From: Pirellulales bacterium
Lineage (GTDB): Bacteria > Planctomycetota > Planctomycetia > Pirellulales > PALSA-1355
NCBI GenBank assembly: GCA_963733035.1
Contig: CAVTBU010000004.1
Span: 256,001 to 320,000, forward strand
DNA: 64,000 nucleotides
Reading direction: 5' to 3'
Positions 8,440-24,466 of this stretch are shown piece after piece. The position numbers were made by a program, and so were the translations under genes. Position 1 is the stretch's first letter. Each line of letters opens with the position of its first letter. The notes beneath the pieces are model-generated. The model was not told where the DNA came from and ran no database searches. It worked only from the letters and a program-made list of their open reading frames with translations.

Positions 8440-9339
8440 ATGCCGCCGATGCAATCGATCGATCTGGCCTACGTCGGGCGTGGCATCCACGAAGAACTAG
8501 TGGCGTATGTCGCCGATCAGGAGGGGTACTTCGAGGATGAAGGCATCCACGTCGCCGTCCGCGACGGAATCAAGTGGAAGACCGAGCGACTGCGCGGCGG
8601 TGCAACCATCGGTTTAGGGCGCACCTTGTTGTCACGGCTGACCGAAGGCATCCAATGGAAGATGCTGGCCGTCAACACGCATCGTCCGCTGTTCTGGTTC
8701 CTCGGGCGTGGCGATGTGAAATCCATGGGTGATCTTCGCGGGCGCCGACTGGCGGTCCACCCACCTAGCACCGCACCCGGCTGTTTCGCGCGGATCGTGC
8801 TGCGCAAGCACGGTCTCGACCCCGATCGCGACCTGCAGTGCATCGCACGATTCCCGGGTGACTACCAGATGGATCTACGACATCTTCGCGACGGTTCGAT
8901 CGATGCGGCGTACGTGGGCAGCACCTTAGCGCCCGAACAGATTGCCGCCGAGGAGGGCTTTTCGGTCCTGTCCTGGGTTGGCGACCACTTCCAGATTCCC
9001 ACCGTGGGAATCGCCGTAGACCCCACTCGTATCCCGCTCGACAACCCAGCGCTTCAGGCACTGGTACGGGCCAACCAGCGAGCCCTGCGCACGATCGCCG
9101 AACAACCCCAGTTGGCCGTCGACTACATCGCCTTGTTCCTCAACCGGCTGACCCGCAATGAAGTTCAGCAATACTACGAGCGCTACATCAGCCCGTACTT
9201 TACCTCCGATGGCCAAGTAGACCTCGACGTGGCGCAACATGCGGTCGATGCGGTCGCCGCCGAACTCGGCGCCGCTACGGCGTCCGCTGACCAAGTCTAT
9301 CTGAACGCCGCCGCGGCATCCCGAAACTCGAGCGCGTAA
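8440..9339 (+). CDS. NitT/TauT/SsuA-like ABC substrate-binding protein (no permease or ATPase beside it)
   Basis: YVADQEGYFEDEGI, KSMGDLRGRRLAV, LRKHGLDPDRD, LRDGSIDAA. Confidence 0.75.
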   Translation: MPPMQSIDLAYVGRGIHEELVAYVADQEGYFEDEGIHVAVRDGIKWKTERLRGGATIGLGRTLLSRLTEGIQWKMLAVNTHRPLFWFLGRGDVKSMGDLRGRRLAVHPPSTAPGCFARIVLRKHGLDPDRDLQCIARFPGDYQMDLRHLRDGSIDAAYVGSTLAPEQIAAEEGFSVLSWVGDHFQIPTVGIAVDPTRIPLDNPALQALVRANQRALRTIAEQPQLAVDYIALFLNRLTRNEVQQYYERYISPYFTSDGQVDLDVAQHAVDAVAAELGAATASADQVYLNAAAASRNSSA

Positions 9340-9398
9340 TTGTAAAGCTCTCGGGCAAGAATGCAGAAGGCCCTCAACCTACCGCTAGTTGCTTAGTT

Positions 9399-9419
9399 TG
9401 GAGCGACAGGATTTCAACC
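9399..9419 (-). repeat. Degenerate inverted copy of the tRNA-Pro T-arm/acceptor 3' end (att-like relic)
   Basis: Reverse complement GGTTGAAATCCTGTCGCTCCA versus GGTTCAAATCCTGTCGCCCCGA. Confidence 0.55.
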
Positions 9420-9593
9420 GCCTCTTACCCCGCACAGAGTGCCTGCCGACTATCGGATGCTAAAGGTCGAACCGACTCTGGGTCATTGGGTAAACTGGCC
9501 AAAGCGTTTGTGCCCTCGGCACTACACTGAACCCTTCGAATTAACCGATACCGTCATTCTCGCAGACCACTGGTGAATCCGATGCCGGGACAA

Positions 9594-9762
9594 CTTGCAC
9601 TCACTTGCACTAGACTCCATGAAATCGTCGAATTCCATGCACTTGACGCGTCTGGTATGATTCAGTCGCGCATTGAATCGCAACGACTTACGTCAATCGA
9701 TCTGCGTTGACGACGAAGCTGGGGGTCAAGCGGTCGCAGGTTCAAATCCAGTCGCCCCGATT
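9594..9762 (+). repeat. 169-bp att-like repeat, copy 1 (TTGCACT arm repeats, IHF-like site, tRNA-Pro 3' half)
   Basis: Gap-free alignment with 20989-21157; about 25 mismatches counted by eye (about 85% identity). Confidence 0.92.
9719..9760 (+). pseudogene. 3' half of tRNA-Pro(GGG), anticodon loop to acceptor stem; att core remnant, not a complete tRNA
   Basis: CTGGGGGTCAAGCGGTCGCAGGTTCAAATCCAGTCGCCCCGA; no D-arm or 5' acceptor strand upstream. Confidence 0.85.
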
Positions 9763-10540
9763 AGACTTACGACGATTGCCGACGGGTTGCTAGTTGCACT
9801 AACTTGTCACTGTGTGGCTGATTTCTTCTTCAAGGGCTCTGCGGTGCGCGAGGCCGTGCACGTCACTTGGCGCCTTTCCGCGAGTCCGAAGCACATCGCA
9901 ACTGGCCACTTAGCGTCTCACGTCGATGACGCTATCTCGACGCTGTTGGCCGGTAAAAACCTGCCGCTTGACACGGAGTCAACCGGTCTTCGGCCGCCAA
10001 GCGGAACTAGGCCATGCATTCCGATTGCATTCAAGCGATCGCAGTTCAACGAATCGCGATCGGGTGCTCCAACAGCATCACTAGGTCAGTATGGCTCGCC
10101 AATATTCGAGCGTCAGATGGGTTGTGGGTCGAGAGCACGCAGGATTTTGGCGTTCGAGTGTCGGAGCGGCCGCCTACCCGAAACCTTTCTCGAATCGGGT
10201 TCGGATGTACCATTCGTGTACCCGTTGAGCATTCTCATAGACCGATATTCCTCGCTACGTACCAGTAACCTCGCCGACGACGGCTCCAAAGAGTGGGTGC
10301 CGCCCATTTCGCCGGATTCTGCGAGGCCCATCTCGGCACGTTTCCCGCAGAGTCGAACTGTGAGCGTGCTGCTTTCCCTGTTGACGGCCGGTGTCGCGTC
10401 TAGGCGGCAGCAACAGGAACTCGACGGGTTTTGTATTGCGAAGTGGCGCTGGTATGTTGGGGGGCTCGTACCCATCGGCCCCGCGATCAGTTCGACCATT
10501 CCTAGCCAATCTACTCGACATCAGGAGCGTATTACCCGTC

Positions 10541-11839
10541 ATGGCCGTTCCGAACCAACATGCTAAAACGATCATGGAACGGCTCCTCGGTGGTATGCCA
10601 CCCGAAGAGTTGACCAGCCGCTACGGCCCCCAGAGCCCGAAGGCGCACCGCCTTCCGCCCCGTGTTCCCGGCTCGGCAGACTACAGCACGGCGGCGCTGC
10701 AGCGCCGCCGTGAGATGCTCAATAAACGGGGCATTGAGCTGCACGAGTTGGCCGGGGAGGGAAATGGGATCGAGCCTGAGGGGTTGGCCGGCAATATCGA
10801 GAATCTGGTCGGAATGGCCCGTGTGCCGATCGGAGTCATCGGCCCCCTGCGAGTTCGCGGCACGGCGGCCAATGGAGATTTCTACATTCCGCTGGCCACC
10901 ACCGAAGGTGCGTTGGTCGCGTCGTGCCAGCGGGGTTCCCAGGCGATCAGCCGATCTGGGGGTGCATCCGCGTGTTGCTTCACCGAATCCGTGTCCCGCG
11001 CCCCCTGCTTCGCCTTCGAGCGGCTGACCGAGGCGGGCCAATTCCTGGCTTGGGTACTTCCCCAGTACGACCGACTACAGGAGGTCGTAGCAAGCACTTC
11101 GCGACATTGCCAGCTACTCGACTTGCGCACGACCGTGATCGGCAAGGAGGTTTATTTAGCGTTTGAATTCACGACCGGTGATGCGGCCGGTCAGAACATG
11201 GTGACAATCGCCACCGAAGCGATCTGCAAGTCGATCCTGACCGGCGCGCCCGTGCAGCCCAGTCGCTGGTTTCTCGATGGAAACCTTTCGGGCGACAAGA
11301 AAGCGACGATGCTCGGCTTTACCTACGCACGTGGAAAGAAAGTGGTCGCAGACGTGGTAGTCCAGCGTGAAGTGGTCCGGCGTTTCTTGCACACAGAACC
11401 GGACGAGATGTTTCGCTATTGGCAGGTTTCCATGCTGGGAGGCGTGCAAAGCGGATCGATCGGCGTGCAAGGTCATTTCTCGAACTCGCTGGCCGCGATG
11501 TTCATCGCCTGCGGCCAGGATGCGGCCTGCGTGTCCGAGGCTTCGGTGGGAGTTACTCGCATGGACGTGACACCCGACGGCGACCTCTACGTCGCCGTCA
11601 GCCTGCCGAACTTGATCGTCGGCACGGTAGGCGGAGGGACGCGATTGCCAACGCAACGCGAATGCCTGGAGATGATGGATTGCTATGGTAGCGGCAAGGC
11701 CCGCAAGCTGGCCGAAATCTGTGCCGTCACGGTGATGGCAGGCGAGATCTCGATCATCGCCGCCCTGACCGCCGGTCATTTCGGTCAAGCGCATGCGACG
11801 TACGGGCGACAGCACGCCGCTCCCGATGATTCCGAGTAG
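10541..11839 (+). CDS. Class I HMG-CoA reductase-like protein
   Basis: ENLVG...VPIGVIGPL, PLATTEGALVAS, TGDAAGQNM, GNLSGDKK, ACGQD.A, VGTVGGGT, C-terminal His (GQAH). Confidence 0.9.
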   Translation: MAVPNQHAKTIMERLLGGMPPEELTSRYGPQSPKAHRLPPRVPGSADYSTAALQRRREMLNKRGIELHELAGEGNGIEPEGLAGNIENLVGMARVPIGVIGPLRVRGTAANGDFYIPLATTEGALVASCQRGSQAISRSGGASACCFTESVSRAPCFAFERLTEAGQFLAWVLPQYDRLQEVVASTSRHCQLLDLRTTVIGKEVYLAFEFTTGDAAGQNMVTIATEAICKSILTGAPVQPSRWFLDGNLSGDKKATMLGFTYARGKKVVADVVVQREVVRRFLHTEPDEMFRYWQVSMLGGVQSGSIGVQGHFSNSLAAMFIACGQDAACVSEASVGVTRMDVTPDGDLYVAVSLPNLIVGTVGGGTRLPTQRECLEMMDCYGSGKARKLAEICAVTVMAGEISIIAALTAGHFGQAHATYGRQHAAPDDSE

Positions 11840-11859
11840 TGGCACCGGCTAAAGCATTC

Positions 11860-12951
11860 ATGGGTCACTATATCGATGAACGAGCCGATTTTGGCATTAT
11901 CCGTTATGCCAATTGCTGGGAAGACGCCGACGTACTCTGCGCAGCACTCGAGCCCGCGCCTGACAAGCGCATCCTGTCGATTGCGTCAGCCGGTGACAAC
12001 GCGTTGGCGTTGTTGGCTGGCGGATGCGAGGTCGTAGCGGCCGATTTGAGCCCGGCGCAGCTCGCCTGCGTCGAGCTACGAGCCGCTGCCTTTGGAGAGC
12101 TGGACTACCAAGATACACTTGCCTTCTTGGGTGTGGCCAGTTCCTCAGAGCGGCTGGCCACCTATCGCCTGCTGGCCCACCGCTTATCTGTTGGCGCTCG
12201 GGCCTACTGGGATAGCCACGAGAACTTGATCGCCGCGGGCGTCATCCATGCGGGAAAATTCGAAGACTACTTTCGCCGGTTTCGCCGGTTCGTGCTGCCG
12301 CTGGTGCACGGACCCGGTCGCGTGCGTGAGTTGCTCGCCGATAAGCCGCCGGAATCTCGTCTCGAGTTCTACGACCGCCGCTGGAACAGTCGACGGTGGA
12401 GGCTGTTGTTTCGGGTCTTCTTCAGCCGCCTAGTGATGGGCCGTTTGGGTCGCGATCCAGAATTCTTCCGCTATGTCGAAGGTTCGGTCGCGGACCGAAT
12501 TCTCGCACGCACGCAATATGCGCTGACGACGTTGCCCACGCATGAAAACCCCTACCTGCAGTACGTTCTGCACGGCAATTTCGGACCCGCGCTTCCTCGC
12601 TATCTGCGGCCCGAGCACTATCTGAAGATCCGCGCGGGGCTCGAGCGGCTGACGCTTGTCGAAGGCACCATCGAAAGCGTGGCAGCACGTGACGGACAGA
12701 AGTTCGACGGCTACAACCTATCTGACGTCTTCGAGTATCTAGATCCGGCCACCTGTCGTACGGTTTTCGAAAAGTTGCTGGCAACGGCGAATCAGGGTGC
12801 GCGGCTCGCGTATTGGAACATGCTGGTACCCAGGGAATGCCCTCAGGAACTGGCGGCACGCATGCGGCCGCTGCGTGATCTGGCCGAGAAACAATTTGCC
12901 AAGGATCTGGCCTTCTTTTACAGCCGGTTCGTGGTGGAGGAAGTCTGTTGA
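11860..12951 (+). CDS. DUF3419 / BtaA-like SAM-dependent (3-amino-3-carboxypropyl) transferase
   Basis: IRYANCWEDAD, ILSIASAGDNAL, ADLSPAQL, GKFE.YF, NPYL, FDGYNLSDVFEY; alternative GTG start at 11839. Confidence 0.85.
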   Translation: MGHYIDERADFGIIRYANCWEDADVLCAALEPAPDKRILSIASAGDNALALLAGGCEVVAADLSPAQLACVELRAAAFGELDYQDTLAFLGVASSSERLATYRLLAHRLSVGARAYWDSHENLIAAGVIHAGKFEDYFRRFRRFVLPLVHGPGRVRELLADKPPESRLEFYDRRWNSRRWRLLFRVFFSRLVMGRLGRDPEFFRYVEGSVADRILARTQYALTTLPTHENPYLQYVLHGNFGPALPRYLRPEHYLKIRAGLERLTLVEGTIESVAARDGQKFDGYNLSDVFEYLDPATCRTVFEKLLATANQGARLAYWNMLVPRECPQELAARMRPLRDLAEKQFAKDLAFFYSRFVVEEVC

Positions 12952-14339
12952 ATCCCTTGGCAGCGGATCTCTTAGGTGGTGCTGTGGTAACGGTGCTTTT
13001 CTTGAGCATCGTAGCGGCCGCCGAGGCGTGGCGAAGATGGGGCCGTCCCGATCCGGAGTCGACTCGCAAGCTGGTTCACATCGCCGGTGGCTTGGTCGCT
13101 TTGTGCCTGCCTTTCGTGGTTCGCTCGCACTGGATCGTGGGAGCGATGGCCCTGGGCATGGCAGTCTTGTTTCTCGCCGGGAAGTGGACCGGCCAGTTGC
13201 AAAGCCTGCATGGCGTCAGTCGCCGCAGCAGTGGCACGGAATACTATCCGCTAGTCATCTATCTATTGTTTTATTTCACGCAAGGCGCACCCGTAAAATA
13301 CATCATTTCCGTGCTTGTTCTTACTACGGCCGACAGCCTGGCCGCACTGATTGGCAGCCGCTATGGGCGCCTGCGGTACGAAGTCGACAACAACTTCAAG
13401 AGCGTGGAAGGATCTCTGGTCTTCTTTCTCGCCACGTTTCTGGCGGTTCTGGTTCCACTGCTTGCCTGGCCGATGCTGATCGGTCCGCTGGAAGCCTCGC
13501 CGACTTTGGTGGCGTGCGTTTTCACTGCGTTGCTGGTAGCCTTCCCGACCACGGGGATCGAAGCCATCGCCCAGCATGGCCGCGACAATCTGTGGGTGCC
13601 TCTAGGGACGCTGCTAATTCTCAACAACACCCTTCATCTACCCATTGATTCGCTTGCCAGGTGGACTTTAGTCCTGTTGACTATTTGCGCCATCACCGGA
13701 CTGGCGGTATGGCGAATTGCAACGTTCAACGTTGGGGCCACGGTGGTGCTGATCTTGGCGGCGTACGCCTGCTGGACTCTCACTTCGATTGACTGGGCGA
13801 TCCCATTCTTTCTGGCATTCGGATACTACCTGATTGCCGTTCTCGCGAGTCCGCAGCCCATGAAGATTGCTTCTCGGGCGGTCGTGAGAGCCTTGCTGCC
13901 ACCCTTCGTCGTGATGATGGCCGCGGCGCTGCTGCGGCACGAGGGCGCGACTCAAGTGTACGGGTTCCTCTATGGACCGTTCGTAGCTGGGTGCGCGTCG
14001 ATCGCAGGCCAATCCGCATGGGACCAGCTTACACACGGTTATAGCGCGGGTCGCGCGTTCAAGTTCCTTGGGTCAATTGCGAACACATGCCTGGCGTGTA
14101 TCGCGGCCATCTTGCCCGCGCAGCTGCTGCAACCAGGTATGACGTGGATCGCGCCGCTTTGGATCGCGGCCGCAGCGCTCGCCGTTGGTATACCCTCGGG
14201 AATGCTCGTCGACCATCCCGCGATTGTGCGTTCCACACGTTTGTGGGCGCTAGCCCGCATGGGCTTCATCACAGCGGCGTTGGGGCTGGTGGCGCTCGTC
14301 CAGGCTGCGGGGCTCAGTCCGCTCTGGCATCCGCGCTAG
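12948..14339 (+). CDS. Phytol/dolichol kinase-like (SEC59/VTE5, CTP-dependent) polytopic membrane protein with an extra C-terminal TM region
   Basis: ESTRKLVHIAGG, ADSLAALIGSRYG, KSVEGS, GRDNLWVP motifs; many TM helices. Confidence 0.82.
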   Translation: MNPLAADLLGGAVVTVLFLSIVAAAEAWRRWGRPDPESTRKLVHIAGGLVALCLPFVVRSHWIVGAMALGMAVLFLAGKWTGQLQSLHGVSRRSSGTEYYPLVIYLLFYFTQGAPVKYIISVLVLTTADSLAALIGSRYGRLRYEVDNNFKSVEGSLVFFLATFLAVLVPLLAWPMLIGPLEASPTLVACVFTALLVAFPTTGIEAIAQHGRDNLWVPLGTLLILNNTLHLPIDSLARWTLVLLTICAITGLAVWRIATFNVGATVVLILAAYACWTLTSIDWAIPFFLAFGYYLIAVLASPQPMKIASRAVVRALLPPFVVMMAAALLRHEGATQVYGFLYGPFVAGCASIAGQSAWDQLTHGYSAGRAFKFLGSIANTCLACIAAILPAQLLQPGMTWIAPLWIAAAALAVGIPSGMLVDHPAIVRSTRLWALARMGFITAALGLVALVQAAGLSPLWHPR

Positions 14340-17079
14340 GGGCGACATCGAGCCTGACCGTGCCGGCCGATCCGTCCATTGTGACATGCTGGCCGCTGTT
14401 GAGCGTGGCAGTCAAGCCCCTGATGCCGACAATCGTGGGAATGCCCATCTCTCTCGCAACGACGGCGGAGTGCGAAAGGATGCTCCCCCTTTCGATTAAC
14501 AAGCCCGAGACCGCCGGATAGAGAGGCACCCAGCCTGGGTCGGTCCGTTCGGCCACGAGAATCTCGCCGTTCAACTGCACGTCGTCGCGAGGGTCGGTGA
14601 TGACAATCACTTCTCCGCTGACGATGCCCGGCGAGCATCCCACACCGTGCAACACCCCGTCTTCGCCGACTGGCGCGTGTTGCTTATTGTTGACGAACCG
14701 ATTTCGATGATAAGCCATGCCGAACGTCTCGAAGCGTTCGTCCGGGGCGGCGCACTGTGCCGAGCGGTAACCTTCGAACTCGTTTTGCCGTAGCGAGGCC
14801 AGATCCCGCAGATTCGTGGTCACCGCCGTACCTTTGACGAAGTCCCAGACTTCGTCGATGGTAAGATAGAAGACCTGTTCGGGCTCGGAAAGAATCCCTT
14901 CCTCGGCCAATCGACGCCCCAATGCCCGCAACAGTTCGCGCAGCAGGCCGTAGATCCGAGTGCGGGCGAAGCGCATGTTTTCGCGATTTTTCACGCCCTG
15001 TCGTGCCCGTTTGAGCACCGCATGAAAGACGGCCCGCTTGAGGCCGGCGGTCGGTCCTCGCAACTCCTGCCGGACTTTTGCTTCGGCATCGTGGCGCACC
15101 TTTTGCTCGCGAGACTGCATGGTGGCCACGTCCAGTGCCGTCGGATCATTTAGCGCCAGGTAGTTCCGCAGCACTTGATAAACTAAGTGTGGGCGGTCGC
15201 GCAACGAGTACTCCTCCAACTTTAATTCGTCCATGCAACGAAAGCCGTAGAGTTCCAGGTAGTGATCGAACTCCGCTTGGAACTGGTGGAAACGTTCGTC
15301 GCCGGCCACACGTTGAGGGAGTTCGACTGGCGGTACCGTCGTGATCAGATCGCGCAGCGTCGGGTTCTGCTGTGCGCCGCCCGCCAGCCGGAGGAGCATG
15401 CGGGCAGGTTCTGCACTCTCTACGCCACCTTCGCCGCAGATCAGGTCGTTTTGCAGCGATCCCGATTCATCGTGACACCACGAACCACAAAGTTTCTTCA
15501 ACAATCCATAGTAGATCATTACATAGAAATCATTGACGATCGGCGCTTTCCAATTCCAAAGCAGCGATTCCTCCATCTCGTAGTAGAGCTGCATCAGCTC
15601 GTGGGGCCGCTGGCGATCGAGGTCGAGAGCCGACCACCGATCGTAATGCTCGCGAAAGTTCGCTTCGAAGCGGGACACGATCCCTCGAATCCGTACAAAG
15701 TTGAGAGCCGAACGACACAGTAGGCGTACCAGCGCTGGCAACTCGACGAACCAACGCCGCCAGAAGCCGCGCGGCGGCTCGTCATCACAATCGAGCTGCT
15801 CCCTCAGCCCCATCATGGATTCCATGAACTGCGCGTTGTATTGAAAGCCGGGAAAGAGTCGTACCAGCCGATACCAGTTCTGCAGGTTGTAGTAGACGCG
15901 GCCGCGAAAAAGCCCCAGCATGTTTTCGAACGTCCGCTCGTTTGCCCGTACCTTGGCCTGCGAAATACCCATTACCTGGGCGAAGCAATAATAGACGATC
16001 GTATATGCTCGGCGGATAAAGCTGAACGTCATCGGCGTGGTGACGCCGGAGTAGCTTTCGATAATGTTGGAATTGTCCCACACCAGGCGATGGCCCGCGG
16101 CCGGACCACATTCCCGCAAGTTGGTGACCGGCCGCGACTGCAGCATAAACAGGCTTCCCTGGCGATCGAAGCAGAACTCGATGTCCTGTGGTCGGCCGAA
16201 ATCTCGCTCGATTTCGATTGCCGCCCGTACCGCTTGGCGAACCTGTTCGTCGGACAGACTGCTCGCGGATTGCAGGTCGAGCGGCACTTCGTCGTGCCTC
16301 AGCCCGCCCCGCTGTTCGTCGAGCACCAGTTGCCGTTGCTTAGGTACAATCGCCGCCGAGAACTCCAGCGAGTCCTTGTCAACGGTATAGGTATCGGCGT
16401 CCAGGCCGGCGCTGACAAGCCCCTCGCCGAGACCATACAGGCTGCTGACGACCACTTGGTGCACACTTTCAGTGCCAGGATTGCAGGTGAACATGACGCC
16501 GCTTTGGGTCGCATCGATCATCTTCTGTACTATCACCGCCACCGCGACGTCTGCCAGTGGCACGCCCGAGCGCAGGCGGTAGACGATCGCCCGCTCATTA
16601 AAGGCCGACGCCCATACGCCACGAATGGCGCGCAGCGTTTCATGCGGACCGCGCACAAAAAGAAAGCTGTCGTGCATGCCGGCGAAGGATTGCTGGGCTG
16701 AATCCTCATCTAGCGCAGAGGACCGAACGGCGACATAGCCTTCGGCTCGGAATGATCCGCTGTATTGCCGACAGATGAGCTGCTCCAGCTCGTCGGGAAC
16801 GGGGCAGTTGGCAATGGCCGCTCGAAGCGCCGCGGCCGCTTCAACCACGGCCGTTTCACCCTGGACGGCGCCGAGGGCCTGAATACGGGATGCGAACCCG
16901 CCGAACTGCATCGCGTGCTCGAAGGCCGCGGCCGTGACGGTAAAGAATTCCGGCACCCGCTGTCCGGTTTGCCGAAGCCGCAGCAGGTTTGCGGCCTTGC
17001 CACCCACACGCTCAGCCAGCGCATTTGACGGTGCCGACTCGTCCGTCACAAGCCAATCGTTCTCGCTCATCCGACTCAA
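14314..17079 (-). CDS. PEP-utilising / dikinase-type enzyme with RPH/PigC domain order (ATP-grasp, substrate domain, C-terminal phospho-His swivel)
   Basis: VGGKAANL, VAVRSSALDEDS...SFAG, PQDIEF, LQSRPVT, TDPGW, GSILSHSAVVAREMGIP; start at TTG 17079 or ATG 17070. Confidence 0.88.
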   Translation of the reverse strand: MSRMSENDWLVTDESAPSNALAERVGGKAANLLRLRQTGQRVPEFFTVTAAAFEHAMQFGGFASRIQALGAVQGETAVVEAAAALRAAIANCPVPDELEQLICRQYSGSFRAEGYVAVRSSALDEDSAQQSFAGMHDSFLFVRGPHETLRAIRGVWASAFNERAIVYRLRSGVPLADVAVAVIVQKMIDATQSGVMFTCNPGTESVHQVVVSSLYGLGEGLVSAGLDADTYTVDKDSLEFSAAIVPKQRQLVLDEQRGGLRHDEVPLDLQSASSLSDEQVRQAVRAAIEIERDFGRPQDIEFCFDRQGSLFMLQSRPVTNLRECGPAAGHRLVWDNSNIIESYSGVTTPMTFSFIRRAYTIVYYCFAQVMGISQAKVRANERTFENMLGLFRGRVYYNLQNWYRLVRLFPGFQYNAQFMESMMGLREQLDCDDEPPRGFWRRWFVELPALVRLLCRSALNFVRIRGIVSRFEANFREHYDRWSALDLDRQRPHELMQLYYEMEESLLWNWKAPIVNDFYVMIYYGLLKKLCGSWCHDESGSLQNDLICGEGGVESAEPARMLLRLAGGAQQNPTLRDLITTVPPVELPQRVAGDERFHQFQAEFDHYLELYGFRCMDELKLEEYSLRDRPHLVYQVLRNYLALNDPTALDVATMQSREQKVRHDAEAKVRQELRGPTAGLKRAVFHAVLKRARQGVKNRENMRFARTRIYGLLRELLRALGRRLAEEGILSEPEQVFYLTIDEVWDFVKGTAVTTNLRDLASLRQNEFEGYRSAQCAAPDERFETFGMAYHRNRFVNNKQHAPVGEDGVLHGVGCSPGIVSGEVIVITDPRDDVQLNGEILVAERTDPGWVPLYPAVSGLLIERGSILSHSAVVAREMGIPTIVGIRGLTATLNSGQHVTMDGSAGTVRLDVAPSADARAD

Positions 17080-18036
17080 GAGACAATGACTCCGTTGCGA
17101 GATCCTAATGCGAGCGCCATCGTGAGATCAAATGCGATGATGTACATGCCGGCATACGTCTCCATACGATGGGCGGTCTTCGTCGAGGTGTGGAAACGGA
17201 ATTGAAAGAACCCCAGCAGACACACTCCGTATAGTGCGACTAGCACGGCGTAGAACCACCAGGGAAGACCCAGGTGGTATCCGACCGCGGCAACCATTCC
17301 GGTATCGATCACGCGCACCAGCAGTACTGCGTAAGCCGCGCCGTAGGTGCCAAAGATCTTTGTATAGGTGTCGACTCCGTCGCGTTCGTCTTCCGGCGCG
17401 AATCTTTCGAGAAATCTCCCAGTTGAAGGTAACAAAGAAGCCGACAAACGCATAGAACCAATACCACTGCGATGCTTCCCAGAGATAGCGATTCGTAGTG
17501 TAACTGTAAACAACCATTGCGAGTAGCGGCATAATCAGCATGTGCGACGTTGCGTACAGGAGAAAGTGCTTGCGAAGCCACGAGCCGACAAAGAACTCTT
17601 TGAGCATCAGTAGCGAGAAGATGAGCACCGCGGCAACCGCCACTAGCGCGGCCGGTGAAACGAAGATGGCCCACACTAGCGCCGCGCTCAGTTCCCAGCC
17701 AATGGCCACGCCACCGAGAACTTTCAGGTCGCGGAGCGTGATCAGTCCACTTTGCAAGACGCGATCGGGATAGTGGCGGCAATCTTCGGCGTAGTCTTTG
17801 TGTTCGTCGAAGACTCGCAGGTGGAAAAAGATCGCCAATAGCGTGGCGGCCCCTACGAGCGAACTCAGCGAATAGCGCATCTGCTCGCCGGGGTGGGTCA
17901 GCGCTTGCGCGAGAAACTGATTACACGAGTAGTAGCTAACGATCAACACCCCATGCCCAACCGGCGGAAACCGTTCTTGGAGGTAGGCCCACAGCCGAAC
18001 TGGAAACGGTGAATTGACAGTCAGGTTATTCGCCAT
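17076..18036 (-). CDS. UbiA-superfamily prenyltransferase-like membrane protein, one frameshift near 17400
   Basis: ERFP, LRVFDEHKDYAED...PDRVL.SG Asp-rich motif; frame 1 ...EISRKIR continues in another frame as APEDERDGVDTYTKIFG plus TM helices. Confidence 0.75.
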
Positions 18037-18067
18037 GCGCGAGCCCGGGTGGACCACTCCTGGAATG

Positions 18068-19714
18068 CTAGGATCGCCGAGCCGCGTCCGACGAGGCCGT
18101 TAGAAGCCGTCGCAACGCCCGATAATCGACTTTCGAGCGGTGCCGCGGGTCGAGCGGCAAGGGATGCTCGGCACGGCGGACGTCATCCACCGGAAGCCCA
18201 ACCTGTTCAATCCTCTGCCGCACCCGCGTAAGTATATCGCCTCCGCATGTCGTTTCGACAACCACTACGACCCGTTCCCCCATTTTGTCATCCGGCAAGC
18301 CGATCGCGGCGATTCTCAAATTGGCGTCGCCACCGGCGCCGGCCTGTTCGACAAGTTGAGGATGCACCGCCTCACCGTCGCGGTGGATGGTTGAGTGAAC
18401 GCGGCCGACCAACCAAACGTAGCCCTGCGCGTCGACGTACCCCGTGTCGCCCATCCGATGCCAGACGGTTCCGTCGACGTCGACGATCTTGTTTTCCGCA
18501 ACTGCCGTTGCATCGCGAAAATAGCCGCGCGCGACGTGGTCTCCACAAACGATCAACTCGCCCGATTCGCCGCGGGGGACTTCCCAGGGGGCCCAGCCGG
18601 CTCCGTCCAAAGAGATCGGTCCGCCGTGAATTCGCACGACGCGCAATCGCACCAGGGGGCTCGGCCTGCCAACGCAATAGCCGGCCGCTTCGCGCGTGGC
18701 CGACGTTGCCAGGGCAATCCGTCGATCCGCCTCGATGTGGGCAACCGGTTCGGCCTCAGTCGAGCCATAGACAACCAGCAGTTGCGCGTCGGGCCAGGCG
18801 TTCCGCCAGGTGGCAAGCTGCCGATCGCTCACCGGGGCACCCCCTGTGAGAATTCGTCGCAACGAATAGTGCGCGCCTGAACGCCGGTCTTGGTATTCGG
18901 CAAGGCGGTCGATGAACGGAGGCGAGGCCGTGCAGGTCGTCACCCGATTGCGGCGCATTTGGTCCACGATGCTCGAGGCGTCCACCTGATCTACGCGCCG
19001 AAAATCGATTGACGGAATAATCGACGAAATGCCACGGGCGAGGTTATTCAATGCGAACACCGGAAACAGTGGCATATCGACGTCGTCGTCCGATTGCGGA
19101 AACTCTTGCTGCAGCGCCGCATGTTGTGCTTGCAGAAATCCATGCGTCCGCTCGACGCCCTTGGGCAGGCCGCTGGAACCGCTGGTAAATGTGATCATGG
19201 CCGCGTCGGTGGCGGCGGTCGCGGTGATGTGACCGTCGCCCGCCTGGCGCTGCAACTCGTGCAGCGAGTACCGAGCTGGCAAGCGCAACCAACAGCGGCC
19301 CGTGGTTACGGTGATCGGGACCTGCCGTAGCGAACGATCAACAAGCCGCAGCAAGTGACTCTTCGGAACGCCGATCCAAGCCGAGGTTTGTGCGAACGAC
19401 ACGAAGGCCGAGATCTGCCGACGACCGACCCAGGGATCGACGAACACGGCAGTGGCTCCGCATTTGAGCGTGGCGAGCAACAGCGTGTAGAGATCGATCG
19501 ACATCGGGATCATTAATAGGGCCCGCTCGCCCGGTCGCAGCCCCGCGGCGCGCAATCCCACACTGGTTCGATCGACACGTTCCCATAGATCGGCGAAGGT
19601 GACTCGCTCATCTCGCCCGCGCTGATCCTGCATCACCAGGGCTGTACGCGAGCCGTACTGTGCCGCAACGCGAGCCAGCAGCGCCACGACATTTCTATCG
19701 GCTTGGGCTGTCAT
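18068..19714 (-). CDS. AMP-binding adenylate-forming enzyme (OleC-like / acyl-CoA ligase)
   Basis: FTSGSSGLPKG, YGSTEAEP, WHRMGDTGY, LPLDPRHRSKVDY. Confidence 0.88.
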   Translation of the reverse strand: MTAQADRNVVALLARVAAQYGSRTALVMQDQRGRDERVTFADLWERVDRTSVGLRAAGLRPGERALLMIPMSIDLYTLLLATLKCGATAVFVDPWVGRRQISAFVSFAQTSAWIGVPKSHLLRLVDRSLRQVPITVTTGRCWLRLPARYSLHELQRQAGDGHITATAATDAAMITFTSGSSGLPKGVERTHGFLQAQHAALQQEFPQSDDDVDMPLFPVFALNNLARGISSIIPSIDFRRVDQVDASSIVDQMRRNRVTTCTASPPFIDRLAEYQDRRSGAHYSLRRILTGGAPVSDRQLATWRNAWPDAQLLVVYGSTEAEPVAHIEADRRIALATSATREAAGYCVGRPSPLVRLRVVRIHGGPISLDGAGWAPWEVPRGESGELIVCGDHVARGYFRDATAVAENKIVDVDGTVWHRMGDTGYVDAQGYVWLVGRVHSTIHRDGEAVHPQLVEQAGAGGDANLRIAAIGLPDDKMGERVVVVVETTCGGDILTRVRQRIEQVGLPVDDVRRAEHPLPLDPRHRSKVDYRALRRLLTASSDAARRS

Positions 19715-20847
19715 CTGGGCTCGCCTGCGTATTGATAGAGAACATAGCGTCGGCTCACAGTTCCTTTGTTGCTGTCGAGGCGACCGGATGGGTTTCCTTC
19801 ACGAATTAAACACAGGTTCGCCCGGCGAATCCCCCTTTGCAGGATCGCGTGGTAACATCGCCACGTCAGGGCACCCGCCACGCCAAAGCGACGATGATCG
19901 GCCAAGACGCCGACTGTTTTCATGTTCACTGCGTCGGCGGTTCGCCGGTTCAGCATAAAACGCAGCTTAGCCAGCGGTCCGTCTTTGCCGCGCATGGCCG
20001 AAACCGCGCGGTGATAGTCGACCATCGCGAACAAAAAGCCCACGGCCTCTCCCGCCGACGTCTCGGCGATCAACACGAGTGTCGGATCGATGAGCGAACG
20101 GACCGGTCGGTATAGCGCGAGAAAATCGGCCAGGCTGATTTCTTCGTAGAGAAAGTTGCCGGCAAAGATCTGTGTCGAAATCCGATAGATGATTTCAATC
20201 TCCTCCTCAAACCGGTCCATCACCAGGGGACGCAGGCGATACCCTCGGTCCAACACATCATCGTGGATCCTGGCCAGTCCGGCCGCGGCGGCCTCGATAT
20301 CTTCGATCCGAGTTGAATAATAGTTCTCTAGTGGTTCGAATCCGGCCCGTTGCCACAGGTCGCCGTAGTAGGGCCTGTTGTACGGCTCCATTAGAAAAGG
20401 AGGTTGACGGAACTGTCCGAGGTTAAATCGATACCGATGCCATGTGTCGCCGTCCATCGGTCCGACAATCGTTCGCACACCTCGCTTCATGAGCCAATCA
20501 ACGCCGGTTGTCAGTAGCTGACCAACCTCATTGGGAGCTTCGACCGCTTCGAAAAACCCCAACATGCCAACCGGCGCGTGATTCTCGTCAACCAGCACGG
20601 GTGAGATTCGGACAACCGTCCGAGCTAGCGTCCGCTTGCCGCTTCGCCACAGCAAAGCTCTTTGCCGTTCCGCAAAACGCTCGCGCAAGAGGCTTGCTCG
20701 CGTCTTGGCAAGCGGCTCGGCAATGTAATAGGGGTCATCCCGATAAATCGAACGCGGTAGCTCCAGAAAGGACTGCAAATCCTCCTCGGTGGCTAACGCG
20801 TCAATGATCACCGGTGACGACTCTTGAGACGCACGGCTCCAGAACAA
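19711..20847 (-). CDS. YghO-like tandem GNAT N-acyltransferase
   Basis: FLELPRSIYRDDP, GMLGFFEA, WL..RG...IVGP, PFLMEPYN.PYY, VGVLADHRRFGVAGAL acyl-CoA motif A; start uncertain. Confidence 0.78.
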   Translation of the reverse strand: MFWSRASQESSPVIIDALATEEDLQSFLELPRSIYRDDPYYIAEPLAKTRASLLRERFAERQRALLWRSGKRTLARTVVRISPVLVDENHAPVGMLGFFEAVEAPNEVGQLLTTGVDWLMKRGVRTIVGPMDGDTWHRYRFNLGQFRQPPFLMEPYNRPYYGDLWQRAGFEPLENYYSTRIEDIEAAAAGLARIHDDVLDRGYRLRPLVMDRFEEEIEIIYRISTQIFAGNFLYEEISLADFLALYRPVRSLIDPTLVLIAETSAGEAVGFLFAMVDYHRAVSAMRGKDGPLAKLRFMLNRRTADAVNMKTVGVLADHRRFGVAGALTWRCYHAILQRGIRRANLCLIREGNPSGRLDSNKGTVSRRYVLYQYAGEPR

Positions 20848-20988
20848 ACGGCAGCGATCATTCTAGTCTTGGATCCTCGTACTGGTAGGACATTTACTTC
20901 ACGACCCTATGCCAGATAGCCTTGGGTCGCCAGAGACTCTGGGTGTCATCGAAGATGGCGCCGGTACTGGTAGCCCATCTCCCGCCGC

Positions 20989-21157
20989 CTTGCACTCGCT
21001 TGCACTCGACTCACCGAATTCAACGAAATCGATACACTTGACGCGTTTGGTATGATTCAGTCGCGCGTTGAAAGGCAAGGACTTACGTCAGTTTCTCTGC
21101 GTTGATCACGTAGCTGGGGGTCAAGAGGTCGCAGGTTCAAATCCTGTCGCCCCGATT
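20989..21157 (+). repeat. 169-bp att-like repeat, copy 2
   Basis: Colinear with 9594-9762 at offset 11,395. Confidence 0.92.
21114..21155 (+). pseudogene. 3' half of tRNA-Pro(GGG); att core remnant
   Basis: CTGGGGGTCAAGAGGTCGCAGGTTCAAATCCTGTCGCCCCGA; 5' half absent. Confidence 0.88.
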
Positions 21158-21337
21158 TCATATTTCTTAAGTGATTATTATTAAATGACTTACGATGATG
21201 CGAGCTTCGGGCGGTTTTCCTGTCGCCCTTACGTTCTTGATGCCCGCTGTGCCGGCCGAAAACGATTGTTGGGCTGAGTTTACGCGATGCGCTGCGCGCT
21301 CACTCACGCAGCACAACGATTCTCTAGCCGCGAAAAA

Positions 21338-21357
21338 TGCAGCGCATTTGCAGCGCG
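21338..21357 (+). repeat. 20-bp direct repeat (arm-type-like), copy 1
   Basis: TGCAGCGCATTTGCAGCGCG, identical to 25578-25597. Confidence 0.85.
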
Positions 21358-21448
21358 ACAATCGGACGTAAGCGTTTCTGCAACGACGCCCTAGTCACTG
21401 CCCTACGTCCGGATTCGGAATTCCCTGAGAGATCACAAGCTTCCTCTC

Positions 21449-21476
21449 TTGACAAACTGTTAGTTGCATATACAAT
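21449..21476 (+). promoter_or_regulatory. Sigma70-type promoter of marR overlapped by a palindromic operator
   Basis: TTGACA(21449)-16 nt-TACAAT(21471); GTTGCATATACAA near-palindrome overlaps the -10. Confidence 0.7.
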
Positions 21477-21518
21477 CAAACCAGGGGGCATGAAGTGGGA
21501 GCCGACCATATCCAAGCG

Positions 21519-21950
21519 ATGATTGACAAGGTCGCCAGCGAGTGCGTTGCCGTTCGGCTGCGCATGCTGAATCGCGTCGTCACGAACATCTACGATGACG
21601 CGCTGCGGTCGCTTGACCTTAAGGTGAGCCAGATGAACATTCTGGTCGCCGCCGCCAAGATGGGAACGGCTCGCCCCGTTGAAGTTTGCGAGCATCTCCA
21701 TCTCGATGTTTCGACTCTCAGCCGCAACGTCGAACGAATGAAGGCACGTGGCTGGCTGGAAGTGGTGCCCGACGAGGACGGCCGCTCGCAGCCTTTCCGT
21801 CTGACACCGCAGGGGCGCAAGCTGCTGGAAAAGGCGCTCCCGGCCTGGAGCGCGGCGCAACAGCAGGTCAAGAAGGTTTTAGGAGACGGGTTCGTAGAGC
21901 AGTTGGACCAAGCCATGAAGCGGTTCAACAAGAGTGCCGCAGCGAGCTGA
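21519..21950 (+). CDS. MarR family winged-helix regulator
   Basis: ECVAVRLR...VTNIYDDAL, SQMNILV, LHLDVSTLSRNVERM...GWL, LTPQG; start at ATG 21519 or GTG 21495. Confidence 0.9.
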   Translation: MIDKVASECVAVRLRMLNRVVTNIYDDALRSLDLKVSQMNILVAAAKMGTARPVEVCEHLHLDVSTLSRNVERMKARGWLEVVPDEDGRSQPFRLTPQGRKLLEKALPAWSAAQQQVKKVLGDGFVEQLDQAMKRFNKSAAAS

Positions 21951-21965
21951 TTTTTTTTCGCGATG

Positions 21966-21981
21966 TAGTTGTATGTACAAC
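21966..21981. promoter_or_regulatory. Second putative MarR operator, immediately before the RBS of the fusion enzyme
   Basis: TAGTTGTATGTACAAC versus TAGTTGCATATACAA at 21461-21475. Confidence 0.65.
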
Positions 21982-21992
21982 AAGGAGCGGCC

Positions 21993-24455
21993 ATGAAGCT
22001 CGAAGATCATCCGACAGTGCAGCGGATTCGCCTCAAGACCGCACCTTCCGTTCCGCCCACCAAGGAGTCGCTGGATGCCGGATGGCTCAAGCAACTCGTC
22101 CTCGATGCCGGCGCTGTTGACGTGGGGTTTGTCGAAATTGGTAGACCCGCCTTGGACGATCAGCGGGAAGACATACTCAAGGCGTTCCCCCACACCAAGA
22201 CCCTAATCAGCTTCGTGGTTCGCATGAACCGAGAGGCGATTCGGACACCGGCTCGCTCGGTTTCCAACCTCGAATTCCACCATAGCGGAGAGGAGGTCAA
22301 TCACATTGCGCGGAGCGTGGTTCAGACTCTGGAAGACCGGGGAATTCGCGCCATGAACCCCGCGATGGGCTTCCCGATGGAAATGGGGCGGTTCCCCGGC
22401 AAGGTTTGGATCGTATCCCACAAGCCAGTCGCGGTGGCAGCGGGGCTTGGCATGATGGGCATTCACCGCAACGTGATCCATGAAAAGTTCGGCAATTTCA
22501 TTCTGCTTGGGACGATCCTGTTGGAAGCCGAGGTTTCAGAGTTCAGCCGGCCGATCGACTACAACCCATGCCTGGAATGCAAACTGTGCGTGGCCGCATG
22601 TCCTGTAGGGGCCATCTCGCCGGAAGGCAATTTCAACTTCTCGGCCTGCTATACCCACAACTACCGCGAGTTCATGGGCGGCTTCACCGATTGGGTCGAG
22701 CAAGTGGCTGACAGCAAGAACTCCCGCGACTACCGTAGCCGGGTCAGCGATGCGGAGTCGGCATCGATGTGGCAGAGTCTTTCCTACGGGGCGAACTACA
22801 AGGCCGCGTATTGCCTGGCGGTCTGCCCGGCTGGAGAAGATGTGATTGGGCCGTTCCTTGCTGATCGGAAGGCCTATCTCAATGAAATCGTACGGCCCCT
22901 TCAAGAGAAGGAGGAGACGATTTACGTCACTAAAAACTCCGACGCCGAGGATCATGTCGCCAAACGGTTTCCCCACAAAACAATCAAGCATGTCGGCAAT
23001 AGCCTGCGGCCAAACTCCATCGAGGTTTTTCTTAACAGAATGCCGAACGCATTCCAGCCAGGCAAGTCGACCGGATTGAACGCTACGTACCACTTCACCT
23101 TCACGGGCCATGAACAGCGGCAGGCAACGGTCGTGATTCGGGACCAGAAACTCAGCGTGTACGAGGCGCATGTCGGACAGCCCGATCTGCACGTGACCGC
23201 TGACTCACAAACGTGGATCGGCTTTTTGAGGAACGAACGAAACGTCGTATGGGCCATTCTCCGGCGGAAGATTCGGCTCGCTGGCCCACTCAAACTGCTG
23301 GTCGCGTTCGGAAAGTGCTTCCCGAGCGCAGGTGGCCGACAGGAGCTGGTCGAGTTCGTACCGCAACCCTCCAAACTCAGGGGCGGGCCTGCGCCCTACG
23401 TGAAAAATGACCCAGTTACCCGAGAAACCCGCTGGCGTGGCAAGTTCACGCTCTCGGAGGTTGTTGACGAGACTCCCGAGGTGAAGACCTTCCGCTTCGT
23501 TCCTCCTAGTGGCGGGGCAATCCCCTTCGAGTACCTGCCTGGCCAGTTCGTGACGCTCCACGTTGCGCCTCGGGGCATACCGACCAAACGTTCCTATACG
23601 ATCGCGTCGTCGCCCACATGGCGCGACCGGATCGAGATCACGGTGAAACGCGAAGGTCAGGGACTAGTCTCGCGGTGGTTGCACGACGAACTGAAGATCG
23701 GGGACGAGGTCGAGATCGAAGCGCCGAATGGGACCTTCACCTTCAACGGCAATGAGGCGGACCGAGTGGTACTGATCGGCGGCGGCGTAGGAATTACGCC
23801 TCTGATGAGCGTAGTGCGTTATCTCACCGCGACGAACTGGCCGGGCAAGATGCACTTAATTCTCGGCTTTCGGTCGCCGCGAGACTTCATTTTTCGAGAG
23901 GAACTGGCCGAACTCCAGGCACGCAACTCCAATCTCAGCGTCACGATCACCATGAGCGGTCCGGAAGACGAGCCGTGGTCGGGGCGCGTCAGGCGAATCG
24001 ATGCGACCCTGCTCACTTCGACCGTGCCTGAACTCGCGACACATCGCGTGCATGTATGCGGGCCACCGCCAATGATGGACGCAGTCAAGACTGCGCTCGT
24101 TTCGCTCGGCGTCCCCCATGCTCAAGTCAACACCGAGGCGTTCGGAACGATCAAACGCGATCCCTCCGCAAAGGATGCCGGATCAACGGAGATCGCGGGC
24201 AAGGCTTTCTTCCGGGCTTCCGGCGTGACCGCACCGGTTCCGGTCGATGCAACGATACTCGACGCGGCCGATACGGCCGGCGTCGTCATCGACAACGCCT
24301 GCCGTTCCGGCACATGCGCATCCTGCCGCGTCAAGCTGGTCTCGGGCCAGGTGACGATGGCCGTCGAGGATGCGCTGACCGATCAAGACAGAGTCGAGGG
24401 TTACATCTTGGCCTGCCAGGCCAAGATCCAGGGCGATATTGAAGTCGACGCTTGA
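21993..24455 (+). CDS. QueG/reductive-dehalogenase-like 4Fe-4S domain + SCP2 + FAD/NAD(P)H FNR + 2Fe-2S ferredoxin fusion
   Basis: SHKPVAVAAGLG..G, CLECKLCVAACP, YCLAVCP; SCP2-like YHFTFTG...PDLHVTADS; RSYTIAS, GGGVGITP, VCGP, TEAF; CRSGTCASC...LACQ; AAGGAG RBS. Confidence 0.85.
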   Translation: MKLEDHPTVQRIRLKTAPSVPPTKESLDAGWLKQLVLDAGAVDVGFVEIGRPALDDQREDILKAFPHTKTLISFVVRMNREAIRTPARSVSNLEFHHSGEEVNHIARSVVQTLEDRGIRAMNPAMGFPMEMGRFPGKVWIVSHKPVAVAAGLGMMGIHRNVIHEKFGNFILLGTILLEAEVSEFSRPIDYNPCLECKLCVAACPVGAISPEGNFNFSACYTHNYREFMGGFTDWVEQVADSKNSRDYRSRVSDAESASMWQSLSYGANYKAAYCLAVCPAGEDVIGPFLADRKAYLNEIVRPLQEKEETIYVTKNSDAEDHVAKRFPHKTIKHVGNSLRPNSIEVFLNRMPNAFQPGKSTGLNATYHFTFTGHEQRQATVVIRDQKLSVYEAHVGQPDLHVTADSQTWIGFLRNERNVVWAILRRKIRLAGPLKLLVAFGKCFPSAGGRQELVEFVPQPSKLRGGPAPYVKNDPVTRETRWRGKFTLSEVVDETPEVKTFRFVPPSGGAIPFEYLPGQFVTLHVAPRGIPTKRSYTIASSPTWRDRIEITVKREGQGLVSRWLHDELKIGDEVEIEAPNGTFTFNGNEADRVVLIGGGVGITPLMSVVRYLTATNWPGKMHLILGFRSPRDFIFREELAELQARNSNLSVTITMSGPEDEPWSGRVRRIDATLLTSTVPELATHRVHVCGPPPMMDAVKTALVSLGVPHAQVNTEAFGTIKRDPSAKDAGSTEIAGKAFFRASGVTAPVPVDATILDAADTAGVVIDNACRSGTCASCRVKLVSGQVTMAVEDALTDQDRVEGYILACQAKIQGDIEVDA

Positions 24456-24466
24456 GGGGGTAGTTC

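Follow-up and report, generated by a model that had tools for sequence, protein, structure and literature searches.

A stretch of 64,000 nucleotides (nt) from a Pirellulales bacterium of the Planctomycetota (GenBank assembly GCA_963733035.1, contig CAVTBU010000004.1, positions 256,001 to 320,000), referred to here as the window, was analysed for a group of seven genes at window positions 10541 to 20847. These encode an HMGR-like reductase, a DUF3419 protein, a kinase-like membrane protein, a phosphoenolpyruvate synthase-like (PPS-like) phosphotransferase, a UbiA-superfamily transferase, an ANL-family ligase and a tandem-GNAT N-acyltransferase. The seven genes are one conserved module, and their co-location is far beyond chance. 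The whole is read, with a probability of about 0.55, as a horizontally acquired copy of a widespread seven-enzyme operon making a membrane-bound amino-lipid. Evidence going beyond family membership bears on the reaction type of the reductase and on the amine-capping step only; the order of the steps, the acceptor and the chain handled by the UbiA-type enzyme are inferred.

The window genes were defined from the listing of open reading frames (ORFs) together with Pfam and NCBIfam profile scans. The listing and the profile and fold matches are in accordance with the original prediction, which had described the seven families in two coupled convergent operons. An operon of three genes on the plus strand and another of four genes on the minus strand converge with a 26-nt overlap, and within each operon the listed neighbours overlap by 1-4 nt or are separated by a gap of 10 nt. 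The module includes two polytopic membrane enzymes, which adds to the lipid context of the reading.

Conservation of the seven-gene module

Twenty-one diverse homologues of the kinase-like membrane protein were aligned and one genome per species was searched, covering 185,579 species. The search gave 406 stretches with a relative of the membrane protein, and the best 80 yielded 79 loci with flanks of up to 10 kb. The presence of each family was scored per locus by tblastn with the window proteins at E<=1e-10. All 79 loci belong to metagenome-assembled genomes (MAGs). The kinase-like gene was present in 79/79 loci and DUF3419 in 73, followed by the PPS-like gene (51), the UbiA and ligase genes (47 each), the GNAT gene (38) and the HMGR-like gene (37). 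Counted by locus, seven families were found in 26, six in 11, five in 9, four in 5, three in 8, two in 15 and one in 5; contig ends cut many of the gene-poor loci, and the presence counts are uncorrected for this.

Co-occurrence across phyla had been set as a test by the original prediction, and all seven families were found together in these 26 loci, which come from eight phyla. The complete sets belong to Planctomycetota, Verrucomicrobiota/Victivallales, Acidobacteriota, Gemmatimonadota, Nitrospirota, Geobacteraceae, Armatimonadota and Chloroflexia, with near-complete sets in Omnitrophota, Spirochaetota and 'Tritonobacter'. The seven genes lie within 9.0-14.3 kb in all 26 complete loci, forming a single co-directional operon in 16 and the convergent 3+4 layout of the window in the other 10. 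The order HMG-UBI-PPS-DUF-KIN-GNL-AMP recurs in Nitrospirota, Acidobacteriota, Armatimonadota, Verrucomicrobiota and Chloroflexia, and the single-operon versions span about 9.5-10 kb. The nearest copy of the module lies in a Planctomycetota MAG with 63-84% amino-acid identity. The kinase-like family has 1492 representatives at E<=1e-30 among 1.84 billion clustered proteins.

All-against-all clustering of the 1031 ORFs of the 79 loci revealed the seven families as the most widespread. No eighth conserved family was found in these loci, the next ORF families being antisense shadow ORFs or lineage-specific neighbours. Three candidate families (F7, F9 and F10) turned out to be antisense shadow ORFs over cluster genes and were rejected, as were an apparent ligase-UbiA fusion and other long fusions, which were upstream ORF extensions in another frame. 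The operon of L092 contains a B12-binding radical-SAM enzyme (12479-13903).

Substrate pocket of the HMGR-like reductase

The first gene of the plus-strand operon (10541..11839) encodes a predicted FcrA-like NADPH acyl-CoA reductase of 432 amino acids if translation begins at the ATG at 10541; the longest ORF extends upstream to 10391. The Pfam scan gave PF00368 with 372.8 bits, the equivalog model TIGR00533 scored 348.4 bits, below its cut-off of 441.8, and the best PDB match was the archaeal HMGR 6hr7. The cluster reductase is the sole PF00368 match in the genome. HMG-CoA synthase (PF01154) had no match in the genome, which is 92% complete, mevalonate kinase and decarboxylase being outside this search; two full-length IspH (LytB) genes are present (C7:313009-313836 and C5:724610-725437). 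Isoprenoids are therefore expected to be made through the methylerythritol phosphate (MEP) route.

The residues were numbered by alignment to human HMGR and 23 cluster orthologues were compared. Glu559, Arg590, Asp690, Lys691, Lys692, His752, Asn755 and Asp767 are invariant in the 23 orthologues, and the catalytic Glu559/Lys691/Asp767 correspond to E122, K253 and D327 of the window reductase. The position of Lys735 is V, I, L or M in 23/23 orthologues (V in the window), and that of Ser684 is Glu in 19/23 and Asp in 4/23 (D in the window). According to PMC9500038, Lys735 forms the salt bridge with the terminal carboxylate of HMG and Ser684 is among the polar contacts. Judged by this loss of the HMG-carboxylate-binding Lys and of the Ser, the cluster reductase is predicted not to be an HMG-CoA reductase.

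An experimental precedent is available in FcrA, a class-I HMGR homologue of 'Ca. Promineifilum breve' and haloarchaea, described by Grossi et al. 2025 (PMC11948995). There FcrA uses NADPH to turn acyl-CoA of C14 and longer into the alcohol, whereas HMG-CoA is not reduced, and simvastatin has no inhibitory effect. Compared with HMGR, the FcrA pocket is reported to differ in Ser684->Glu, in the salt-bridge Lys changed to a small residue and in Leu862->Trp; the lysine printed as Lys795 in that paper is taken to be the Lys735 salt-bridge residue. The window reductase shows two of these three pocket changes, thereby supporting the conversion of an acid through acyl-CoA to an alcohol that had been proposed for the HMGR-like enzyme. 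Like FcrA, the cluster reductase has the class-I HMGR fold with the catalytic Glu/Lys/Asp kept, an acidic residue in place of Ser684 and no HMG-carboxylate Lys; its host is without the mevalonate pathway, and an acyl-CoA ligase gene is nearby, as fadD is beside fcrA in Halovenus. Unlike FcrA, it has no Lad or ACP extension. The partners also differ, being WS/DGAT, AGPS or PlsC-like proteins for FcrA and DUF3419, kinase-fold, PPS-like, UbiA and GNAT proteins here. The evidence points to a reaction type like that of FcrA, giving an alcohol from a carboxylate-free acyl-CoA, and the enzyme is not filed as FcrA proper.

A Thermoanaerobaculia MAG (G064, contigs L104, L105 and L106) carries three class-I HMGR paralogues with three pocket signatures, namely the canonical S/K/M, the cluster-type E/I and a third with R590->V, S684->F and K735->R. 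As canonical and cluster-type paralogues coexist in this MAG, the residue mapping discriminates between the types. The third signature suggests further unexplored substrate classes in the HMGR family.

DUF3419 protein and proposed capping of an amine

The second gene (11839..12951, plus strand) encodes a DUF3419 protein of the BtaA/BTA1 family. It matched PF11899 with 204.5 bits over residues 10-382 of 385, with a Rossmann motif for binding S-adenosylmethionine (SAM) near residues 45-75; no PDB relative was found for it. The DUF3419 family is tied to betaine lipid synthase in PMC10685587. The gene adjoins the kinase-like gene in 73/79 loci, and in-frame fusions of the two occur in two metagenomic proteins (P0014 and P0064). 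Complex prediction for the DUF3419 and kinase-like proteins gave a score of 0.00 against a mark of 0.32, which is evidence neither way. A paper on the cly cluster merely lists a neighbouring DUF3419 gene and was set aside.

The last gene of the module (19711..20847, minus strand) encodes the tandem-GNAT N-acyltransferase. Its start is probably near 20811, because the gene call on record (P0125) has 366 amino acids. The window GNAT had no Pfam match at E<=0.01, and PF00583 was matched by 20/23 of its orthologues. Its AlphaFold2 (AF2) model (pLDDT 93.1) has the form of a tandem GNAT, and Foldseek matched it with E-values of 5e-14 to 4e-10 to 7q3a (tandem GNAT, MAB_4324), 5kf1 (glucosamine N-acetyltransferase), 1ozp (MshD, mycothiol synthase) and 2wpw (tandem GNAT).

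The distribution of this gene gave an insight into its role. Six loci (L032, L046, L052, L067, L077 and L092) have a formyltransferase inside the cluster, confirmed with PF00551 for L052 and L092 and found in the other four by tblastn with those two, and the GNAT is missing from 6/6 of them. Nine loci with both the ligase and the PPS-like gene are without a GNAT; five of these carry the formyltransferase and the other four end at the ligase, while the sixth formyltransferase locus (L092) is without the PPS-like gene. Two different N-acylating enzymes thus occupy one slot, and therefore the pathway would have a free amine needing capping. This swap argues that an amine is N-acylated in the pathway, as had been suggested from the GNAT family. 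The formyltransferase-type clusters keep the ligase, which is therefore not merely the supplier of the GNAT. Transfer of the aminocarboxypropyl group from SAM by the DUF3419 protein would be the obvious source of the amine and fits the known chemistry of its family.

The betaine lipid system offers the closest comparison for this step. In the reaction known for BtaA, the C4 amino-acid unit of SAM becomes joined to the hydroxyl of a lipid through an ether bond. The window protein is like BtaA/BTA1 of diacylglyceryl-trimethylhomoserine (DGTS) synthesis in its full-length DUF3419 and SAM-binding motif. Unlike in the BtaA/BtaB system, no conserved methyltransferase family was found in the 79 loci, the genome at large lying outside the search for btaB, and instead of the methylation of the BtaB route the amine appears to be N-acylated or N-formylated. 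An ordinary diacylglycerol acceptor is unlikely because the cluster has dedicated alcohol-forming and phosphorylating enzymes.

Membrane protein, phosphotransferase, UbiA-type enzyme and ligase

The third gene of the plus-strand operon (12948..14339) encodes a polytopic membrane protein of 463 amino acids with a putative CdsA/CarS/phytol-kinase-type fold in its N-terminal half. VIA placed CdsA 4q2e at the top of 48161 chains for the AF2 model (pLDDT 89.1), with Z 8.5, a root-mean-square deviation of 4.7 and 166 aligned residues over model residues 20-231, and gave CarS 5guf with Z 6.0. Foldseek with the whole model gave no match at E<=0.001, 4q2g having a probability of 0.85 and an E-value of 0.31. 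A 38%-identical homologue (P0052) used as query had Atlas leads to cytidylyltransferase (0.91), DUF92 (0.90, TM 0.68) and phytol-kinase clusters, and homologues are named phytol or dolichol kinase by JGI. The alignment revealed the conserved motifs D..AAL.G.RYG and KS.EGS; we take motifs of the types D..A...G..YG and KS.EGS to be kinase-like. The C-terminal half has extra helices and no family match. On the modelled fold, the protein probably belongs to the superfamily of CTP-dependent lipid kinases and cytidylyltransferases, and its label is the weakest of the seven. The SEC59/VTE5 kinase of the original prediction is in line with the fold, the JGI names and the Atlas leads as far as the superfamily goes, and falls short as a kinase in particular, having no profile match and a fold that cytidylyltransferases share.

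The PPS-like gene (14314..17079, minus strand) encodes an ATP-dependent phosphotransferase of 921 amino acids related to phosphoenolpyruvate (PEP) synthase, RPH and PigC. Profile scans gave PPDK_N with 270.5 bits, PEP-utilizers with 82.7 bits and NF004881 with 893.9 bits, above the cut-off of 883, and full-length matches were obtained to RedH (386 bits) and PigC (366 bits). In the C-terminal mobile domain the catalytic His loop, GSILSHSAVVARE, is intact. The arrangement of ATP-grasp, central and swivelling His domains is that of RPH and of the PigC/RedH prodigiosin ligases (PRK06241 family). The gene always adjoins the UbiA gene.

The UbiA-superfamily gene (17076..18057, minus strand) is frameshifted, with an N part from 18057 to about 17395 and a C part from about 17394 to 17076 in another frame. 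The N part matched PF01040 with 24.8 bits, below the cut-off of 34.2, and 17/18 intact orthologues matched this family, L039 with 37.9 bits against the same cut-off. A first motif DExKDxxxD followed by RxLxRG is invariant, and the second-motif region E..RK...E..G..TY has Glu in place of the canonical Asp. The nearest solved structure is that of DGGGP synthase, 6m31 (E 1.1e-07), and weak secondary NCBIfam matches were obtained to DGGGPS, chlorophyll synthase (ChlG) and EboC. After '...WEISRKIRA' this frame gives Arg-rich nonsense, and another frame takes up the C-terminal third that is conserved. The window gene is 2 nt short near 17394 compared with L016 and L039, and both parts are in one frame in 5/5 orthologues checked, which confirms the broken UbiA frame that had been noticed earlier. 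A search of public reads listed five DNA data sets and no RNA data set, and among the contigs of four runs none spans the site at about 17394 with usable flanks. The lipocone paper (PMC12419801) and the ebo/thallusin preprint deal with other UbiA neighbourhoods and were set aside.

The ligase gene (18068..19714, minus strand) encodes an acyl-CoA/acyl-AMP ligase of the ANL family with an AMP-binding domain (PF00501, 180.3 bits). Its nearest NCBIfam models are NF006754 (PRK09274; 402 bits, cut-off 478) and OleC NF045786 (265 bits, cut-off 900), and its PDB relatives are fatty-acyl, feruloyl and 4-coumarate ligases. From these matches it is predicted to be a generic fatty, aryl or OleC-like ANL enzyme.

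Proposed pathway and alternative explanations

By analogy with its family, the ANL ligase would convert a fatty (or similar carboxylate-free) acid to the CoA thioester, which the HMGR-like enzyme would reduce with 2 NADPH to a primary alcohol in the manner of FcrA, a reaction type backed by the pocket residues. The CdsA/phytol-kinase-fold protein and the RPH/PigC-like enzyme may phosphorylate a lipid alcohol, one with CTP and the other converting ATP to AMP and Pi. Their joint result would be a phosphate or diphosphate ester, comparable to that of VTE5/VTE6 on phytol. DGGGP synthase and chlorophyll synthase prenylate oxygen nucleophiles, and the UbiA-like enzyme may similarly use a diphosphate donor to place a chain onto an oxygen nucleophile. 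On the pattern of BtaA, which acts on diacylglycerol, the DUF3419 protein would attach the 3-amino-3-carboxypropyl group from SAM to the hydroxyl of a lipid, and the tandem GNAT would N-acylate the resulting amine. A phosphorus-poor lipid with ether or ester linkage would result, its homoserine-type head group carrying an N-acyl (or N-formyl) cap.

Known pathways share parts of this scheme. The combination of a CTP-family membrane enzyme with a UbiA-superfamily transferase is found in phytol salvage (VTE5, VTE6 and a UbiA-type phytyltransferase) and in the DGGGP synthase/CarS pair. The scheme differs from phytol salvage in that an RPH/PigC-type His-phosphotransferase, rather than a VTE6 homologue, would carry out the second phosphorylation. 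Unlike the archaeal route, it has no GGGP synthase, glycerol-1-phosphate (G1P) dehydrogenase or CDP-alcohol transferase, and the alcohol appears to come from acyl-CoA reduction. A more specific version is entertained tentatively and as improbable on balance; in it a fatty alcohol phosphorylated twice would be the donor of a DGGGPS-like alkyl transfer by the UbiA enzyme, giving an archaeal-style diphosphate-driven ether synthesis with fatty chains and a SAM-derived, N-capped head group.

Several observations weigh against the amino-lipid reading. The ligase or the PPS-like gene is missing from some clusters (L053, L092), and the query used gave no HMGR-like gene in 3/5 MAGs with a cluster lacking the reductase; as some clusters are without reductase, ligase or PPS-like gene, the seven genes are not all obligatory. 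The ligase is retained in clusters without the reductase and is therefore not tied to the reductase alone. In the pocket of the reductase, the Trp that FcrA has at the Leu862 position is seen in none of 22 aligned orthologues, of which 16 have L, 4 have I and one each has M and F, and the His866 position is H in 3, E in 12, D in 5, R in 1 and K in 1, hence Glu or Asp in 17/23, with H in the window; the cluster orthologues have an invariant His five residues after it. None of 21 members of the membrane-protein family matched Pfam (the PF01148 clan or any relevant family) or NCBIfam at E<=1, and a Z of 8.5 is, for a helical membrane protein, within the range prone to non-specific matches. As its fold is common to the cytidylyltransferases CdsA and CarS, a CDP-activated lipid instead of a phosphate ester may be formed. 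The UbiA frameshift is real in the assembly, and the window copy is either defective or mis-assembled there. Saturated alkyl diphosphates are chemically poor UbiA donors, and the UbiA chain may therefore be an ordinary prenyl diphosphate.

In one alternative, the enzymes would serve the salvage or activation of an isoprenoid alcohol such as phytol, geranylgeraniol or polyprenol and the prenylation of a small soluble or semi-polar molecule, so that the product would be a meroterpenoid-like secondary metabolite, pigment or signal and not a bulk membrane lipid. Allylic prenyl diphosphates are the normal substrates of UbiA enzymes, clusters of phytol kinase and DUF92 (VTE6) are among those that the kinase-like protein resembles, and the full-length match of the PPS-like protein to PigC/RedH is a match to enzymes of pigment biosynthesis. 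The rare and patchy occurrence of the module, in 6/400 other genomes of the phylum by its kinase-like gene and in 0/60 close relatives, is typical of accessory natural-product clusters. We nevertheless consider this alternative unlikely, since the signature of the reductase points to a hydrophobic, carboxylate-free acyl chain like that of FcrA, the sole known activity of DUF3419 is on a membrane lipid, and the seven have no conserved scaffold-forming partner (polyketide synthase, non-ribosomal peptide synthetase, cyclase or aromatic pathway). Lipid genes in the operon of some lineages speak against it as well: an MMPL/RND-type transporter (L074:11354-13450) lies between the kinase-like and UbiA genes of a Spirochaetota operon, with a weaker MMPL-like match in L049 (26% identity), and an Aas-like MFS-acyltransferase-ligase with hydrolases lies beside the cluster of an Omnitrophota locus (L052).

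The genes could also be two unrelated modules that travel together, the ligase and the FcrA-like reductase supplying fatty alcohol for wax esters or classical ether lipids and the others forming a separate head-group or phosphotransfer module. FcrA-type enzymes elsewhere serve wax-ester and possibly ether-lipid synthesis, as stated in PMC11948995; the reductase gene is often no neighbour of the others in loci of Thermoanaerobaculia, lying elsewhere in the genome in two cases; and the operons of the window are separate and convergent. However, many phyla have one co-directional operon with the reductase first, the ligase last and the other five between, and in the window the reductase gene shares translational coupling with the DUF3419 and kinase-like genes and not with the ligase, which makes such co-travelling quite improbable. 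WS/DGAT was also not found in the genome, a search in which the family matched no control genome either and which thus has no positive control. Least of all is a catabolic or detoxifying system expected, in which a hydrophobic compound from outside would be phosphorylated by the RPH-like enzyme and acetylated by the GNAT. Antibiotics are commonly inactivated by GNATs, and among solved structures the PPS-like protein is closest to 5fbs and 5hv1, deposited as 'phosphoenolpyruvate synthase', which we take to be Listeria rifampicin phosphotransferase. These entries match in the ATP-grasp and His domains only, the central substrate domain being unlike that of RPH and unmatched, and resistance leaves the conserved reductase, DUF3419, UbiA and ligase genes in fixed order in eight phyla unexplained, so that this explanation is very hard to credit.

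Putative genomic island and flanking repeats

The module is flanked by the att-like direct repeats that the original prediction had seen. The left (9594..9762) and right (20989..21157) copies, both on the plus strand, are 169 nt long and 85% identical, and a third copy of 35 nt is present at 25648-25682. The repeat occurs at full length three times in the contig (C4), with shorter copies elsewhere. Each flanking copy consists of about 125 nt of island-end sequence, an arm common to three repeat copies, followed by about 44 nt that are the 3' end of the tRNA-Pro(GGG) gene at C4:192575-192650; this part of the right repeat is identical to the gene. The intact tRNA-Pro(GGG) gene lies 73 kb upstream of the module and heads the repeat array, and further plus-strand copies of the tRNA-Pro 3' end were found in C4 at 247.5, 265.7, 277.1 and 281.7 kb. 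The array extends over C4:192575-281682 (89 kb), with window positions 9594-25682 as its right end. From this arrangement the module, with its 11.4 kb, would be a single segment among the tRNA-Pro-targeted insertions of the 89-kb array. An inverted repeat fragment was observed at C4:229460-229482 and a T-arm-like inverted piece at window positions 9400-9419.

The kinase-like gene was not found in any of the 60 relatives searched at E<=1e-20 (3 of the same genus, 29 of the same family and 28 of the same order). A tyrosine integrase (PF00589) had no match in C4 192-282 kb, no recombinase Pfam was found in the 37 ORFs of at least 120 amino acids at 190-256 kb, a search that did not extend to short or decayed remnants, and no recombinase was found among the window genes at 1-35 kb. 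The GC content of the island does not differ from that of its flanks. A search of three same-genus genomes with the DNA of the island flanks gave no matches and is uninformative either way. The module is thus like tRNA-gene-targeted islands in being bounded by direct repeats of a tRNA 3' end and in not being found in the relatives searched, and unlike them in having no integrase or recombinase found and no shift in base composition. The same features divide over the mobility claimed by the original prediction, the repeats and the patchy occurrence supporting insertion and the missing recombinase and uniform composition leaving present movement without support. The island looks like an old, fixed horizontal acquisition.

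The repeats were also considered as tmRNA 3' ends, and this was rejected as the genome tmRNA (C3:1-347, minus strand), truncated on its 3' side where the contig stops, shows no alignment to them. Rfam gave no match in the window nor in 9200-9900, no tRNA was found in the window, and the 172-nt repeat folds no better than shuffled sequences (z 0.58). Between the left repeat and the first gene is a stretch of 778 nt without a recognisable gene (9763..10540), whose sole long ORF (9673-10566) has no Pfam match; the stretch sits where an island integrase would normally be expected and may be a decayed remnant. A second segment lies between att-like repeats (21157 and 25648), with genes at 21495-25468 for a MarR regulator, an 828-amino-acid oxidoreductase and an alpha/beta hydrolase. 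The oxidoreductase combines 4Fe-4S, SCP2, FAD/NAD-binding and 2Fe-2S domains, and the fusion of an SCP2 lipid-binding domain to a reductase is unusual.

Significance of the module

The module had not been recognised as a characterised pathway, and no paper on this gene combination was found in the full-text literature, subscription journals being outside the scope of the search. The main text of the FcrA paper (PMC11948995) does not mention prenyltransferases, Planctomycetes or Acidobacteria. The operon joins an enzyme type recognised only in 2025, the HMGR-like fatty acyl-CoA reductase, with phosphorylating, UbiA-type and SAM-dependent head-group enzymes, and no lipid pathway with that combination has been described. 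As all the loci are MAGs and the kinase-like family has so many representatives, the module would be a common, unstudied capability of uncultured bacteria of soil, sediment and freshwater. The compact single-operon versions make it directly testable by heterologous expression. The identity of the product could give orphan environmental lipids a biological source and a gene marker, could reveal the role of many FcrA-like genes that do not serve wax esters, and could test the formation of ether bonds by UbiA enzymes with non-isoprenoid chains. If the route through a twice-phosphorylated fatty alcohol were true, it would be a fourth, unrecognised bacterial route to ether lipids and a source of orphan soil and sediment lipids.

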